From NCBI RefSeq assembly GCF_030013595.1, contig NZ_CP122768.1: a stretch of 64,000 nucleotides of DNA; one strand, given 5' to 3'. Source of the DNA: Escherichia coli (lineage in GTDB: Bacteria; Pseudomonadota; Gammaproteobacteria; Enterobacterales; Enterobacteriaceae). The translations under genes were made by a program, and so were the position numbers. The notes under the pieces were generated by a model. The model was not told the DNA's origin. It saw only the letters and a program-made list of their open reading frames with translations, and made no database searches. Each line of letters opens with the position of its first letter. Position 1 is the stretch's first letter. Of this stretch, positions 18,269 through 43,758 are shown one piece after another.

Positions 18269-18661
18269 ATGTCTGAACCCTTGTCCGGTTCCGGCACGGC
18301 TGCGGCGCTCGGCGGGGCGACGGTATTCGGGCTGTTTACCGGAACGGATTTCGGGATTGTGTTTGGTGCGTTCGCTGGGGCGTTATTTGTGGCAACGATG
18401 CCGCAGGCGCTTTCAGCCTGGCGTGTGGTGGCGCATTTTCTTGTGTCGTTCATTATCGGCGTGCTGGGCGCAGAGGTTCTGGCGTCCTGGCTGGTAAAGC
18501 ATACAGGGTTTGACGGTGCACCTGTTGACGCATTGTGTGCAGTACTGGTGTCAGTGGTGTCGGTGAAGATTCTGTCGTTCATCCACCAGCAGGATATCGC
18601 ATCACTGGTGTCCGGTCTGTTCTCCCGCCTGCGGGGCGGAGGAGGCGGCAATGTTAAGTAA
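18269..18661 (+). CDS. Putative holin (multi-TM, Gly/Ala-rich membrane protein)
   Basis: AGGAG ribosome-binding site; about 130 aa with several predicted TM helices; first gene of the lysis cassette. Confidence 0.45.
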   Translation: MSEPLSGSGTAAALGGATVFGLFTGTDFGIVFGAFAGALFVATMPQALSAWRVVAHFLVSFIIGVLGAEVLASWLVKHTGFDGAPVDALCAVLVSVVSVKILSFIHQQDIASLVSGLFSRLRGGGGGNVK

Positions 18662-18926
18662 CCTTCCCGGAGTGCTGAATGTGGCGTTATGTACGGTTAT
18701 CGTGCTGACGCTCTTTTTTTATCGTCGTCGTGACTCCAGACACAAACCGCTGATGTCATGGCTGGCCTGGCTGCTGATGCTGCTTTATGGCTTTGCTCCA
18801 CTCAGCTATCTGTGTGGTCGCCCGTTAGCAACGGGCTGGCTGGAAGTGTTTTTTAATCTGCTGTTCTGCGTGCTGGTGATACGCGCACGCGGGAACGTCA
18901 CAAAAATCTTTCCATTGTTGAGGTGA
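18651..18926 (+). CDS. Putative holin/antiholin-like membrane protein
   Basis: 91-aa hydrophobic protein overlapping neighbours on both sides. Confidence 0.45.
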   Translation: MLSNLPGVLNVALCTVIVLTLFFYRRRDSRHKPLMSWLAWLLMLLYGFAPLSYLCGRPLATGWLEVFFNLLFCVLVIRARGNVTKIFPLLR

Positions 18927-19306
18927 ATATGCCGGGTAAATTCAGATTCAGCCGTCGGAGCGAGAAAAATCTGGAGGGCGTCAAACCACAACTGGTTGCT
19001 GTCGTTCGCCGTGCCCTTGAGCTGACGGAAGTTGATTTCGGTATTACGGAAGGCCTGCGCAGTAAGTATCGCCAGAAACAGCTGGTCGCGGAAGGGAAAA
19101 GCCAGACCATGAACAGCCGCCACCTGACAGGTGATGCGGTGGATGTTGTGGCCTACATTGGCAGCCAGGTGTCATGGGACTGGCCTCTGTACGAGAAAAT
19201 CGCGCAGGCATTTAAGCAGGCTGCCGCAGAGCTGGGAACTGCCATCGAATGGGGCGGTGAGTGGCGGTCGTTAAAGGACGGGCCTCACTTTCAGCTGAAA
19301 CGATAA
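18923..19306 (+). CDS. Endolysin, L-alanyl-D-glutamate peptidase (peptidase M15 family)
   Basis: 127 aa; M15-like segments (DFGITEGLRS .. SRHLTGDAVDV .. GGEW). Confidence 0.7.
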   Translation: MNMPGKFRFSRRSEKNLEGVKPQLVAVVRRALELTEVDFGITEGLRSKYRQKQLVAEGKSQTMNSRHLTGDAVDVVAYIGSQVSWDWPLYEKIAQAFKQAAAELGTAIEWGGEWRSLKDGPHFQLKR

Positions 19307-19345
19307 ATAAGGCAAAGCCCCGGTTGTTGGAGCAATCGGGGCTTT

Positions 19346-19585
19346 GTGTTTATGGATTCATTTTGTGAATGCGCATGGGGATCATTCATGCCAGTAAAGC
19401 CTAACACGACGAAAGATAAATTTGGAGATGATCTGATGATAAAAGCAGAAACCACCCCGCAGTGGGCTGATGATGCCGCAAAAATCATCGCGGTATGCCA
19501 GGGCATCAGACACATACTGACGCCAGTTGCATGGATTATTTGTACCGCACTGGTTGCATACACAACAATTTATTTAAACAGATGA
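19346..19585 (+). CDS. Hypothetical lysis-associated protein with C-terminal TM helix
   Basis: 79-aa ORF following the endolysin. Confidence 0.3.
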   Translation: MFMDSFCECAWGSFMPVKPNTTKDKFGDDLMIKAETTPQWADDAAKIIAVCQGIRHILTPVAWIICTALVAYTTIYLNR

Positions 19586-19669
19586 GTGCTGATTTTATTC
19601 GGGCGGTGGCTTTTGCAATTCGCCTTGTGGCGGTCGCTGTTCTGATTTGGGCTGTGCGTTGGTGGTGAT

Positions 19670-19903
19670 ATGAGCCGAAAACACTGGACACACAGAATGC
19701 CGCGAACGGCGGCGAAATGGGCACTGGTAGCGATACTGGTGCCTTTTTTATTGGTGGGGTGCGTTAGCCTGGATAAGGCGCGTCAGCTTTTCGATACCGC
19801 GTCTCAGGCCTGCCAGATTATTGATGGCGTTCGGCGGTGTTCGCAGAACTGCTCACCAACATTACAGCAGCCCTTCAGCCGAGGGGCTGCAATAATGCTT
19901 TAG
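19670..19903 (+). CDS. Small lipoprotein (possible o-spanin-like)
   Basis: Lipobox LLVGC after a signal sequence; Cys/Pro-containing short periplasmic domain. Confidence 0.4.
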   Translation: MSRKHWTHRMPRTAAKWALVAILVPFLLVGCVSLDKARQLFDTASQACQIIDGVRRCSQNCSPTLQQPFSRGAAIML

Positions 19904-20106
19904 TTGTCTTTCATAAATCCTTTAATGACCCATCCCACAAGCCTGGTGATGCTGTACACCAACAAGGCAATTATCAGAGATACAAGGATATCAAACAGTG
20001 AGAATCCTTGCGTATCCGTTGTTGAAAATAAAAGACTAAAGATGAACACCAGAATGGCCAACAGAATACCTACCCGGTGAAAGCCTTTAGAAATCATGTT
20101 TTTCAT
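19900..20106 (-). CDS. Small two-TM membrane protein on the opposite strand
   Basis: 68-aa ORF with GGAGG ribosome-binding site 5 nt upstream; lies between lysis and packaging modules. Confidence 0.5.
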   Translation of the reverse strand: MKNMISKGFHRVGILLAILVFIFSLLFSTTDTQGFSLFDILVSLIIALLVYSITRLVGWVIKGFMKDN

Positions 20107-20167
20107 TTGTCCTCCATATTTGTTTTTTTAAAGGGTGGGCATTTTAACATCAGAAGGATGAAGTTCT

Positions 20168-20518
20168 ATGCCATCACGAATCCCACGTGCCTGCCGTAAG
20201 CGTGGATGCGCAGGTACAACCACAGACAGTTCTGGTTACTGCGATAAACATCGTGGTGAAGGATGGGCACAGCATCAGCGCGGACTGAGCCGCCACCAGC
20301 GTGGATATGGCTCGAAATGGGATGCCATACGGGTGCGCATACTGAAGCGTGATAATCATCTGTGTCAGAACTGCCTGCGCAATGGGATAGCCGTTGAAGC
20401 CAGAACTGTGGACCACATCATTCCGAAAGCTCATGGTGGCACGGATGCAGACAGCAACCTGCAGAGTCTGTGCTGGCCCTGCCATAAAGCAAAAACTGCG
20501 CGCGAACGAATCAGGTGA
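20168..20518 (+). CDS. HNH endonuclease
   Basis: Cys-rich zinc-binding and HNH motifs (CQNC .. VDHIIPKAHGGTDADSNLQSLCWPCH). Confidence 0.8.
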   Translation: MPSRIPRACRKRGCAGTTTDSSGYCDKHRGEGWAQHQRGLSRHQRGYGSKWDAIRVRILKRDNHLCQNCLRNGIAVEARTVDHIIPKAHGGTDADSNLQSLCWPCHKAKTARERIR

Positions 20519-20663
20519 TAATTATTCTCACTTGTGGGGAGGGGCGGGTCAAATCTCTGCAACCCTGGCTGCTCAGTACCGCCGCCTGACCTTTCCTCGC
20601 ATCGCCGCAGGTTCGAAAACTTTTTTTGGAATGTGATTAAATGATTGATAGGTAAAACCGATT

Positions 20664-21146
20664 ATGTCTGGACCCCCGAAAACCCCGCCACGCCTGCATT
20701 TGATACGAGGTAACCCCTCAAAGCGGCCAGTTAAAGACCCCAAAAAAACCGCTAAAAAGGATGAAAAAGGTCTCCCTAAAATTCCGCAACACTTAGGGGC
20801 GCAGGGGAAGTACTGGTTCAGGCGAATGGCGGAAGAGCTGAATGCGGAAGGGATCATTTCTCAGCTTGATGCGCGTGCACTCGAGTTACTGGTGGAAGCC
20901 TACACCGAATACCGGCATCACTGCGAAACACTCGATGTTGAGGGGTATACCTACCGCACGGAAACGCAGAACGGTGATGTGCTGATTAAGGCACACCCGG
21001 CTGCTGCGATGAAAGCGGATGCCTGGAAGCGGATCCGGGCGATGCTTGCAGAGTTTGGTATGTCACCGGCAAGCCGGGCGAAAGTAAATACCGCCGGACC
21101 GGATGATGTTGATCCGCTGGCGGAACTTTTAAAAGCGAGAGACTGA
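20664..21146 (+). CDS. Terminase small subunit
   Basis: 160-aa protein immediately upstream of and overlapping the large terminase. Confidence 0.7.
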   Translation: MSGPPKTPPRLHLIRGNPSKRPVKDPKKTAKKDEKGLPKIPQHLGAQGKYWFRRMAEELNAEGIISQLDARALELLVEAYTEYRHHCETLDVEGYTYRTETQNGDVLIKAHPAAAMKADAWKRIRAMLAEFGMSPASRAKVNTAGPDDVDPLAELLKARD

Positions 21147-41900: not shown

Positions 41901-42293
41901 ACGAAAACCACATCGTCGTTTGATTACGGCACTAAATCCACGAATAACACCGGGGCGCATACGCACAGTGTGAGCGGTACAGCCGCAAGTGCCGGAAACC
42001 ATACTCATAGTGTCACAGGCGCATCAGCAGTCAGCCAGTGGTCACAAAATGGGTCAGTACATAAGGTAGTGTCTGCGGCCAGTGTGAATACAAGTGCTGC
42101 AGGAGCACACACTCATAGTGTCAGCGGCACAGCTGCATCTGCAGGTGCTCACGCACATACTGTCGGTATTGGTGCTCATACGCACTCTGTTGCGATTGGC
42201 TCACATGGACACACTATCACCGTTAACGCTGCTGGTAACGCGGAAAACACCGTCAAAAACATCGCATTTAACTACATTGTGAGGCTTGCATAA
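38940..42293 (+). CDS. Side tail fibre protein (Stf-like) with long Ala/Ser-rich repeat region
   Basis: N-terminus [26 protein letters not shown].. (lambda Stf-like); GAHTHS-type repeats near the C-terminus. Confidence 0.85.
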
Positions 42294-42877
42294 TGGCATT
42301 CAGAATGAGTGAACAACCACGGACCATAAAAATTTATAATCTGCTGGCCGGAACTAATGAATTTATTGGTGAAGGTGATGCATATATTCCGCCTCATACA
42401 GGTCTGCCAGCAAACAGTACCGATATTGCACCGCCAGATATTCCGGCTGACTTTGTGGCTGTTTTCAACAGTGATGAGGCATCGTGGCATCTCGTTGAAG
42501 ACCATCGGGGTAAAACAGTTTATGACGTGGCATCAGGGGACGCGTTATTTATTTCTGAACTCGGTCCGTTACCGGAAAATGTTACCTGGTTATCGCCGGA
42601 AGGGGAATATCAGAAGTGGAACGGCACAGCCTGGGTGAAAGATGCAGAAGCAGAAAAACTATTCCGGATCCGGGAAGCGGAAGAAACAAAAAACAGCTTG
42701 ATGCAGGTAGCCAGTGAGCATATAGCGCCGCTTCAGGATGCTGTAGATCTGGAGATCGCAACGGAGGAAGAAAACTCGTTGCTGGAAGCCTGGAAGAAGT
42801 ATCGGGTGTTGCTGAACCGTGTTGATACATCAACTGCACCTGATATTGAGTGGCCGGAAGAACCAGACACAATGTAA
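42293..42877 (+). CDS. Tail fibre assembly protein (Tfa)
   Basis: 194 aa immediately after stf with overlapping start. Confidence 0.8.
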
Positions 42878-43395: not shown

Positions 43396-43422
43396 TGGTG
43401 GAGCTGGCGGGAGTTGAACCCG
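43396..43422. repeat. att core, right copy (within the ssrA 3' end)
   Basis: Identical 27-mer to 292..318. Confidence 0.8.
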
Positions 43423-43758
43423 CGTCCGAAATTCCTACGTCCTCGGTACTACATGCTTAGTCAGTCTTTACATTCGCTTGCCAGCTGCGGACGGACACGC
43501 CACTAACAAACTAGCCTGATTAAGTTTTAACGCTTCAACCCCAGGCAGGGCTTCCACGCGATCTCTTTTGGGTTTGACCTCTCTTGATCCCCGTCCTAAG
43601 AGCGGAGGCTAGGGAGAGAGGGCTCTAAGCAGGTTATTAAGCTGCTAAAGCGTAGTTTTCGTCGTTTGCGACTATTTTTTGCGGCTTTTTACGAGGCCAA
43701 CCGCCCCTCGGCATGCACCTTGGGTTTCGCAAATCCCGTCGAATCCAGAATCAGCCCC
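43396..43758 (-). ncRNA. ssrA: tmRNA (SsrA), 363 nt
   Basis: Reverse complement begins ggggctgattctggattcgacgggatttgcg.. and ends ..gggttcaactcccgccagctccacca; contains the tag-reading frame (..gcaaacgacgaaaactacgctttagcagcttaa). Confidence 0.95.

Follow-up and report, generated by a model that had tools for sequence, protein, structure and literature searches.

In the spanin survey of Kongari et al. (2018), phage phiP27 is listed with a 'separated' two-component spanin, both subunits of which are singletons (PMC6139136). Its combined periplasmic length of 62 residues is the shortest in that survey, and the supplement places the inner-membrane subunit (i-spanin) at 20348-20542 (64 amino acids, aa) and the outer-membrane subunit (o-spanin) at 20706-20861 (51 aa) (PMC6139136). 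On the holin side, deletion of a gene for a 130-aa 'putative holin' abolished the enrofloxacin-induced release of Stx2e, and supplying the gene restored release (PMC12571312). Here, we describe a lysis region at positions 18269-20106 of a 64,000-nucleotide (nt) stretch of Escherichia coli DNA (assembly GCF_030013595.1, contig NZ_CP122768.1), hereafter the window. With a probability of roughly 70%, we read this region as the late-operon lysis module of a phiP27-like prophage, consisting of a four-gene core (two holin-family proteins, an M15 endolysin, and a lipoprotein), accessory open reading frames (ORFs), and a self-contained moron on the opposite strand.

Gene content of the lysis region

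Positions 18000-20700 gave a 91% match to the Stx2e phage phiP27 and were partly matched in 1,255 of 5,426 complete E. coli genomes. The lysis region is followed by a gene for an HNH endonuclease and then by those for a P27-family small terminase and the large terminase, and these downstream genes, together with the phiP27 match, place the region in the late operon of a phiP27-type prophage. Hydrophobic segments were located with a Kyte-Doolittle scan and lipoproteins with a lipobox search. All ORFs named in a preliminary description of this DNA were present in both the ORF list and the raw sequence. The features of the region are as follows.

18269..18661, plus strand: holin-family protein 1, 130 aa, about three transmembrane (TM) segments (PF16931 Phage_holin_8, 6.5e-23; phrog_198 holin, 3e-43)
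18651..18926, plus strand: holin-family protein 2, 91 aa, three TM segments (PF05449 Phage_holin_3_7, 1.2e-22; phrog_217 holin, 1.8e-38)
18929..19306, plus strand: predicted endolysin, a soluble M15C L-alanyl-D-glutamate endopeptidase, 125 aa (PF13539, 6e-12; phrog_465, 1.5e-73)
19309..19350, plus strand: hairpin of 16 bp directly after the endolysin stop codon, left edge of the accessory insert (free energy, dG, -28.8 kcal/mol; z score -6.8)
19388..19585, plus strand: putative accessory tail-anchored membrane protein, 65 aa, TM segment at about residues 43-61 by hydropathy (GC content 43.9%)
19582..19668, plus strand: hydrophobic ORF of 28 codons, TM residues 4-27, aligning with the C-terminal TM end of phrog_4493, phrog_3246, and phrog_1115
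19670..19903, plus strand: small predicted outer-membrane lipoprotein in the spanin slot, 77 aa (lipobox; phrog_7528, 3e-36)
19719..19750, plus strand: terminator-like hairpin followed by U6, inside the part of the lipoprotein gene that codes for the signal peptide (dG -17.9 kcal/mol; z score -4.1)
19858..19899, minus strand: 3' hairpin of the 68-aa gene (dG -23.3 kcal/mol; z score -4.8)
19900..20106, minus strand: putative moron gene for a 68-aa protein with two TM segments and the motifs GFHRxG and GWxIxGF (ratio of nonsynonymous to synonymous divergence, dN/dS, 0.21; GC content 38.6%)
20110..20115, minus strand: Shine-Dalgarno sequence GGAGGA of the 68-aa gene, 4 nt before its ATG (GGAAAA in the divergent Sx181 and O8:H8 copies)
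20141..20149, minus strand: putative extended -10 element TGTTAAAAT of the 68-aa gene, kept in the aligned copies
20168..20518, plus strand: HNH endonuclease gene, which opens the packaging module and forms the right border of the minus-strand gene (PF01844, 4e-16)

The preliminary description had postulated two holin-like membrane proteins, and profile searches bore this out: the first scored 81.6 bits with PF16931 (gathering cut-off, 26.4) and the second 80.1 bits with PF05449 (gathering cut-off, 25.4). The start of the second gene (18651) overlaps the end of the first (18661). Both proteins thus combine a Pfam holin match above the cut-off with multiple TM domains (TMDs) and a gene beside that of the endolysin. 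Furthermore, the cloning primers used for the 130-aa holin match window positions 18269-18288 and 18642-18661 exactly (PMC12571312), and holin 1 can therefore be credited with an experimental release phenotype.

The endolysin had been described as an L-Ala-D-Glu peptidase rather than a lysozyme, in agreement with M15C matches to PDB entries 8q2g, 23ri, 5opz, and 2mxz. It aligned end to end with 23ri (2e-43), 8q2g (1e-42), Serratia ChiX (5opz, 3.5e-42), and the T5 endolysin (2mxz, 4.8e-23). The zinc motif H65-x6-D72...H120 can be read from its translation, so that the full-length similarity to solved members and the H-x6-D...H signature of the M15C family are both present. The best start is the ATG at 18929, which has a GAGGTG Shine-Dalgarno sequence, and not the GTG at 18923. 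As no signal or signal-arrest-release sequence was found in the translation, the enzyme would rely on the holins to reach the murein. In the lysis scheme that we envisage, late transcripts would express both holins, the holins would permeabilise the inner membrane, and the cytoplasmic endolysin would gain access to the murein and cleave the L-Ala-D-Glu bond of the stem peptides.

A conserved four-gene core with a lipoprotein in the spanin slot

In Salmonella, the gene order is holin_8, holin_3_7, M15 endolysin, and lipoprotein, with no gene between the last two. The order is the same in Yersinia, again with no intervening gene, and the endolysin there belongs to GH108. In the Cronobacter cassette, two small TM genes intervene. 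The constancy of this order across the Yersinia, Salmonella, and Cronobacter contexts defines a core of four genes which can include either an M15 or a GH108 endolysin. The cassette had been called atypical, a label that does not hold, since it is the phiP27 module and the same core is found in these three genera. It is unlike lambda but not rare, recurring in E. coli, Salmonella, Yersinia, and Cronobacter.

The lipoprotein gene was found in 304 E. coli genomes, and the homologues of its product form 153 clusters, all from Enterobacterales and all unnamed. In its canonical form it has 60 codons (19670-19849), which encode a signal peptide and a 30-aa mature part. The lipobox LVGC occupies residues 28-31, its Cys was invariant in 21 of 21 homologues, and residues +2 to +4 are VSL. 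With Val and not Asp at +2, the protein is predicted to be sorted to the outer membrane. The match to phrog_7528, a profile of only 60 positions, covers 60/60 positions. C31, C48, and C57 were invariant in the alignment, and the canonical mature part has a net charge of -1 and no Pro in its 30 residues. The preliminary description had proposed a small lipoprotein in the cassette. The lipobox and the phrog_7528 match support this, except that the last 17 codons proved to be a stop-loss extension: the window reads ...CAG AAC TGC where all 7 other aligned loci read ...CAG AAC TGA. The added codons (19850-19900) run through the hairpin of the convergent minus-strand gene, and AlphaFold2 (AF2) models the 17-aa extension as disordered.

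The best-conserved part of the lipoprotein is its signal peptide, including a long basic n-region, which is unusual. Synonymous divergence (pS) was 0.23 in the signal-peptide half of the gene vs 0.45 in the mature half. The hairpin at 19719-19750 lies within this half and is nearly invariant from E. coli to Yersinia. The signal peptide itself may have a role, or the cause may be an RNA element or a recombination junction. Dual coding was considered and rejected, because the other frames are closed or open for only 16 codons after the start.

Is the lipoprotein part of a spanin? The earlier view that the spanin assignment is unclear is upheld. Searches of Pfam, PHROGs, and NCBIfam returned no Rz- or Rz1-like match among the lysis ORFs, and thus no Rz/Rz1 homology at 19346..19903. 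On the other hand, the lipoprotein has already been listed as the phiP27 o-spanin (PMC6139136), and the 65-aa and 28-codon ORFs appear to be accessory. The published phiP27 o-spanin (20706-20861) is the window lipoprotein counted from Met10. The published i-spanin ORF (L001 2781-2975, plus strand) starts with TTG, has no PHROG match and no counterpart in the window, and lies opposite a 90-aa ORF (L001 2765-3037, minus strand) with a full-length match to phrog_36812 (5e-20). On these grounds we regard it as unsupported; it looks spurious, and the two-component assignment looks unsound. Nine cassettes were searched on the plus strand for ORFs of 70 aa or more whose single TMD is N-terminal. The hits were confined to the lipoprotein itself, one holin, and phiP27 L31, which are marginal or false positives. 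The hydrophobic stretch of L31 includes three acidic residues.

The lipoprotein thus has the lipobox, the residue other than Asp at +2, and the position of an o-spanin, and it lacks an i-spanin partner, its neighbours having C-terminal TMDs. Nor does it have the make-up of a unimolecular spanin, as no hydrophobic segment follows the signal peptide and the 17-aa extension is not a TMD. Nevertheless, it occupies the spanin slot. An enterobacterial prophage with the same holin pair has a lysozyme and, at the place of the lipoprotein, Rz (PF03245), and small tail-anchored proteins of phrog_1115 precede either Rz or the lipoprotein. We therefore tentatively propose, as a possibility that is still rather doubtful, that the lipoprotein is a stand-alone outer-membrane disruption factor which replaces Rz/Rz1 without an inner-membrane partner in a widespread group of enterobacterial prophages; the two-component assignment in phiP27 would then be an artefact. 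In the scheme outlined above, the lipoprotein, with its 30-residue and probably helical mature part and two conserved Cys residues, would join the last, outer-membrane step with no canonical i-spanin partner.

Accessory ORFs between endolysin and lipoprotein

The protein with a C-terminal TM helix and the 28-codon hydrophobic ORF noted in the preliminary description are both present, with TM segments at about residues 43-61 and at 4-27 by hydropathy. The ORF of the first opens at GTG 19346, but the annotated start of its relatives is the ATG equivalent to 19388. This 65-aa protein matched no family in Pfam, NCBIfam, or PADLOC, and searches of these databases and of PHROGs assigned no functional family to the 28-aa product or the lipoprotein either. 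Its 33 homologue clusters come from E. coli and Salmonella only, and their N-terminal 45 residues are nearly invariant, the TM segment being more variable. The Salmonella homologue sits after tail-fibre genes, far from any lysis cassette. The complete block of 65-aa and 28-aa ORFs was present in 34 E. coli genomes vs the 304 with the lipoprotein, and the GC content of the 65-aa gene is 43.9% vs about 56% for its neighbours. Further, UR21, tcmA_3, and O8:H8 have the hairpin at 19309-19350 in identical form, and loci without the 65-aa gene do not have it. The gene behaves as independent cargo.

The 28-codon ORF overlaps the end of the 65-aa ORF at an ATGA. Longer relatives match phrog_1115 (4e-33) and phrog_4493 (1e-15), and complete family members (57-67 aa) are present in Sx181, phiSTEC1575-Stx2k, and Cronobacter. 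In 933W-like phages, the phrog_1115/4493 family lies between the lysozyme R and a canonical Rz (e.g., phage PhiR12_2). The ORF is a 5'-truncated C-terminal TM remnant of this 57-67-aa tail-anchored family that has retained an ATG. Both ORFs are therefore best regarded as AT-richer accessory insertions and not as spanin subunits.

A minus-strand gene for a small two-TM protein

Downstream of the lysis genes, the preliminary description had recognised a 68-aa two-TM protein on the minus strand with a strong ribosome-binding site, and GGAGGA indeed stands 4 nt before the ATG. Its suggestion of a cargo position agrees well with the distribution of the gene, which was present in 15 of the 5,426 E. 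coli genomes vs the 1,255 that partly match 18000-20700. In UR21, the same site has a 42-nt spacer from the lipoprotein stop to the HNH start and no moron; in the window, a 0.3-kb unit replaces this spacer. The GC content of the gene is 38.6% vs 51-58% in its flanks, with the lipoprotein core and the HNH gene at 55-56%. Between copies of the protein that are 70% identical, the 68-codon length and the frame are kept, the only indel being of two codons, and dN/dS is about 0.21 at a dS of about 0.9-1.0. The 68-aa ORF is a real gene under purifying selection. It was left unannotated in three of the loci that we examined.

Putative signals for separate expression surround the gene. The sequence GATGnTAAAAT is invariant in all six aligned copies of the region though the flanks diverge, and our promoter call is based on this conserved extended -10. 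The -35 region is weak and overlaps the HNH start codon. At the 3' end, the stem GCAGCCC/GGGCTGC is retained between 70%-identical copies and the loop is variable. With its presence/absence pattern, AT-rich composition, extended -10, Shine-Dalgarno sequence, and 3' hairpin, the gene has what appears to be the organisation of a classic moron. It would most likely be transcribed from its own promoter in the lysogen, and its product would insert in the inner membrane as a helical hairpin. During lytic growth, convergent late transcription would probably oppose it.

Wherever the neighbouring lysis cassette persists, the 68-aa gene follows it immediately on the downstream side, and the terminases of these prophages are of the P27 or the lambda type. 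Strain STEC308 no longer has the cassette side, and the gene there borders on hyaA. When 1.84 billion representatives were searched with a profile, 78 related proteins emerged at E<=1e-3, mostly of 66-77 aa, with an N-terminal GFHRxG and a C-terminal Y...R..GWxIxGF. In another enterobacterial genome (L015), a 49%-identical homologue is likewise encoded on the opposite strand, flanked by a lysis cassette and an HNH gene. A lysozyme and Rz accompany the same holin pair in this cassette, and TGTTATAAG occurs upstream of the homologue at the same place as the extended -10 of the window gene. Among more distant family members, one is a lone opposite-strand gene in a phage contig and another is near a resolvase.

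AF2 models the 68-aa protein as a helical hairpin (predicted local distance difference test score, pLDDT, 87) with helices at 2-28 and 37-66, and it is predicted to be an inner-membrane hairpin with both termini inside (N-in/C-in). No significant match was found in Pfam, PHROGs, NCBIfam, PADLOC, PDB, or BFVD. Foldseek of the model against BFVD and PDB gave nothing better than E=0.06, and tblastn against 50,697 phage records gave no match. The best weak matches were to PspG (0.076), HpsC (0.0027, far below the cut-off), and PADLOC 2TM (0.11); we dismissed those to PspG, pilin, and TatA-like proteins as hydrophobic-composition noise far below the cut-offs. Longer proteins that contain the two-TM module carry tRNA_anti-like or DUF2569 domains and gave no functional lead. 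There was likewise no relation, and hence no homology, of the minus-strand gene to structural proteins. From these comparisons, the family seems not to have been described previously. Our best guess is that the protein serves superinfection exclusion or another envelope effect and is expressed in the lysogen.

The surrounding prophage

The prophage, of about 43 kb, is phiP27-like and is inserted in ssrA. Its flanking genes recN, nadK, and grpE have 100% identity to those of swine isolates, which places it in the E. coli chromosome. A perfect 27-bp direct repeat, TGGTGGAGCTGGCGGGAGTTGAACCCG, has its left copy at 292-318 and its right copy at 43396-43422, where it forms the 3' end of the tmRNA gene (minus strand, 43396-43758). 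The two copies are the att sites of the prophage. The integrase is probably the 420-aa product of a minus-strand ORF (387-1649) at the left end.

Upstream of the lysis cassette, two tRNA genes, one of them for tRNA-Gly, lie at 17364-17517. In the approximately 750 bp that follow (17520-18268), no ORF matches any family, and this prophage has no toxin gene at that position. Relatives have stx2e, LT-II, a pertussis-like toxin, or TerB/DUF3927 at or beside it (L001, L010, L011, L012, L004). Genes for the A and B subunits of an LT-II-type enterotoxin and for a pertussis-S1-like toxin adjoin the same cassette type in three relatives, namely E. coli O8:H8 (L010 1-1138), Yersinia kristensenii (L011 4988-6140), and Cronobacter malonaticus (L012 489-1217). 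AB5-toxin cargo is thus a recurrent neighbour of this type of lysis cassette.

Elsewhere in the prophage, a full-length gene for a Gram-negative porin (PF00267, 1.7e-154) is found at 14242-15339 on the minus strand and is a further moron-like cargo gene; a DNA methylase gene (16136-17182) adjoins it. Rfam matches to isrK and the C4 antisense RNA stand side by side at 8091-8279 and form an antirepressor control module of the P1/P7 type, which is known in some lambdoid prophages. The ALIL pseudoknot, a frameshift element of IS3-family insertion sequences (IS), was matched at 10780-10896 on the minus strand between ORFs 9964-10854 and 10851-11177, and an IS element therefore sits in the early region. 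At the right end, the small RNA IS009 was matched (213.9 bits) at 42636-42834 inside ORF 42293-42877. The Rfam scan of the whole window gave no RNA family within 18-20.2 kb, and there is therefore no known antisense or toxin-antitoxin RNA in that interval.

Alternative explanations

Several observations weigh against our reading of the region. The 30-aa mature part of the lipoprotein is too short to reach across the periplasm, its AF2 model is of low confidence (pLDDT 61), and the case for its role in outer-membrane disruption comes from position and one bioinformatic survey. The window copy is a stop-loss variant that may be impaired. The window 65-aa protein has W26 and Q38 at positions where its family almost always has Gly and Arg, respectively, which may point to decay, and the IS3-type element in the early region means that the prophage may be defective or no longer lytic. 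As for the minus-strand gene, a two-hexamer consensus promoter scan did not call its promoter, given the weak -35, no U-run follows the hairpin at 19858-19899, and one distant family member resides in a fimbrial island, so that the family is not phage-specific.

The lysis genes could be read in two other ways. The 65-aa protein might be a non-canonical type I i-spanin (N-out, C-in) whose 42-residue N-terminal domain meets the 30-residue lipoprotein in a minimal two-component spanin. The two genes are near neighbours on the downstream side of the endolysin, the 65-aa family shows strong conservation of its N-terminal domain, and Kongari et al. raise the type I possibility and accept a combined length of 62 residues for phiP27 (PMC6139136). 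We nevertheless give this very little credence: the complete 65-aa and 28-aa block is confined to 34 of the E. coli genomes vs 304 with the lipoprotein, the Salmonella, Yersinia, C311, and phiP27 cassettes lack it, the 65-aa gene differs in GC content from its neighbours, and the Salmonella homologue after the tail-fibre genes has no lipoprotein nearby. Moreover, the protein has no signal peptide, and its N-terminal tail has a net charge of zero. It is also conceivable, though rather unlikely in our estimate, that the lipoprotein is not a lysis protein but an outer-membrane lipoprotein of the Cor/Llp kind, acting in superinfection exclusion or receptor masking, and that these phages are spanin-less. 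The very short mature part and the missing i-spanin partner would suit such a role, no annotation names the protein a spanin, and about 13% of surveyed phages have no identifiable spanin (PMC6139136). Its genomic setting argues otherwise. Its gene is always the next one after that of the endolysin within the late operon, be the endolysin of M15 or GH108 type and irrespective of the packaging module; Rz takes its place in other cassettes with the same holin pair; and a consensus promoter scan detected no promoter of its own.

For the 68-aa protein, holin-like and toxin-like roles were ranked below a role at the envelope or against incoming phages. With 68 aa and two TMDs, it has the size and topology of a class II holin or pinholin, and every inspected enterobacterial prophage copy with an adjacent cassette neighbours the PF16931 and PF05449 pair or its remains; it might thus act on lysis as an antiholin, a lysis-timing factor, or an exclusion factor for the adjacent holin pair. 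This is improbable, because the gene runs opposite to the lysis genes, has a putative promoter element of its own, and is carried by only 15 of 5,426 genomes although the cassette is common, while its product has no holin-family match, nothing below E=0.06 in Foldseek, and no charged C-terminal tail typical of holins; distant relatives, too, occur in non-lysis contexts. The protein might also be a membrane-depolarising toxin, either as a type I toxin-antitoxin-like element or as the effector of an abortive-infection system. It is small and hydrophobic, and its gene occupies an accessory slot of the prophage; antisense RNA would come from the convergent late transcription, and PADLOC gave a weak match to a '2TM effector' (E=0.11). 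That match is not significant, however, and there is neither a sensor or antitoxin gene nearby nor an Rfam small RNA here. Known type I toxins have a single TM segment, and the strong Shine-Dalgarno sequence and putative promoter come with no visible control element. A toxin of this sort therefore seems a poor candidate, and we keep to a moron with an envelope function as the preferred reading.

Implications

The same type of module adjoins stx2e, LT-II, and pertussis-like toxin genes in relatives, and its first holin controls the release of Stx2e. The completion of lysis therefore bears on toxin release in porcine and human pathogenic E. coli. Our comparison suggests that one half of the only spanin assignment published for this module is wrong. 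If so, the outer-membrane step would fall to a 30-residue lipoprotein by itself, and the presence of this lipoprotein alone in the spanin slot across several genera is what makes it of interest. If it does act as a stand-alone factor, the last step of lysis in Gram-negative hosts would have a third route, in addition to those by spanins and by the cationic 'disruptin' peptide. Furthermore, with the 68-aa gene the prophage morons would gain a family of small two-helix membrane proteins that had not been described, and the gene is a candidate for phage-challenge screens.

Comparison with known systems

The endolysin resembles described M15C enzymes (the T5 endolysin, ChiX, and 8q2g) in its single domain of about 125-137 aa, its H-x6-D...H motif, and a conserved Trp near the active site (PMC10487532). 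It is recognised as an M15C relative from its sequence, and ChiX acts in protein secretion and not in phage release.

As in lambda Rz/Rz1, a gene for an outer-membrane lipoprotein with a consensus lipobox and without the Lol-avoidance Asp at +2 lies directly downstream of the endolysin gene, and like Rz1 the lipoprotein has periplasmic Cys residues. Unlike the lambda pair, the window yielded no i-spanin in our scan, and the mature lipoprotein has 30 aa and is predicted to be helical. Rz1 is rich in Pro, whereas the canonical 30 residues here contain none. Single genes that handle the outer-membrane step without an Rz/Rz1 pair are found in T1, as the unimolecular spanin gp11, and in phiKT, as the 'disruptin' gp28. 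The lipoprotein would be like both in this respect, but T1 gp11 has a C-terminal TMD, and phiKT gp28, a peptide without lipidation, is cationic, in contrast to the net charge of -1 of the canonical mature lipoprotein.

The closest parallel to the 68-aa gene is lambda bor, which lies just after the lysis genes. Both are genes for small envelope proteins on the opposite strand, with a promoter of their own (a putative one for the 68-aa gene) and AT-richer composition, and both are present in some related phages only. Bor is, however, an outer-membrane lipoprotein, and the 68-aa product is a predicted two-TM hairpin of the inner membrane without sequence relation to any named family.

The module as a whole is most like that of phiP27. 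In phiP27, stx2e lies upstream, L31 and the minus-strand 90-aa ORF take the place of the 65-aa and 28-aa ORFs, L33 stands in place of the 68-aa moron, and the lipoprotein stop codon is normal. Nevertheless, the phiP27 lysis module (L28-L30 and the lipoprotein ORF) has the same two holin families, the M15 endolysin, and the lipoprotein, the shared DNA is about 91% identical, and the HNH gene, cos, and the P27-type terminase follow in both.

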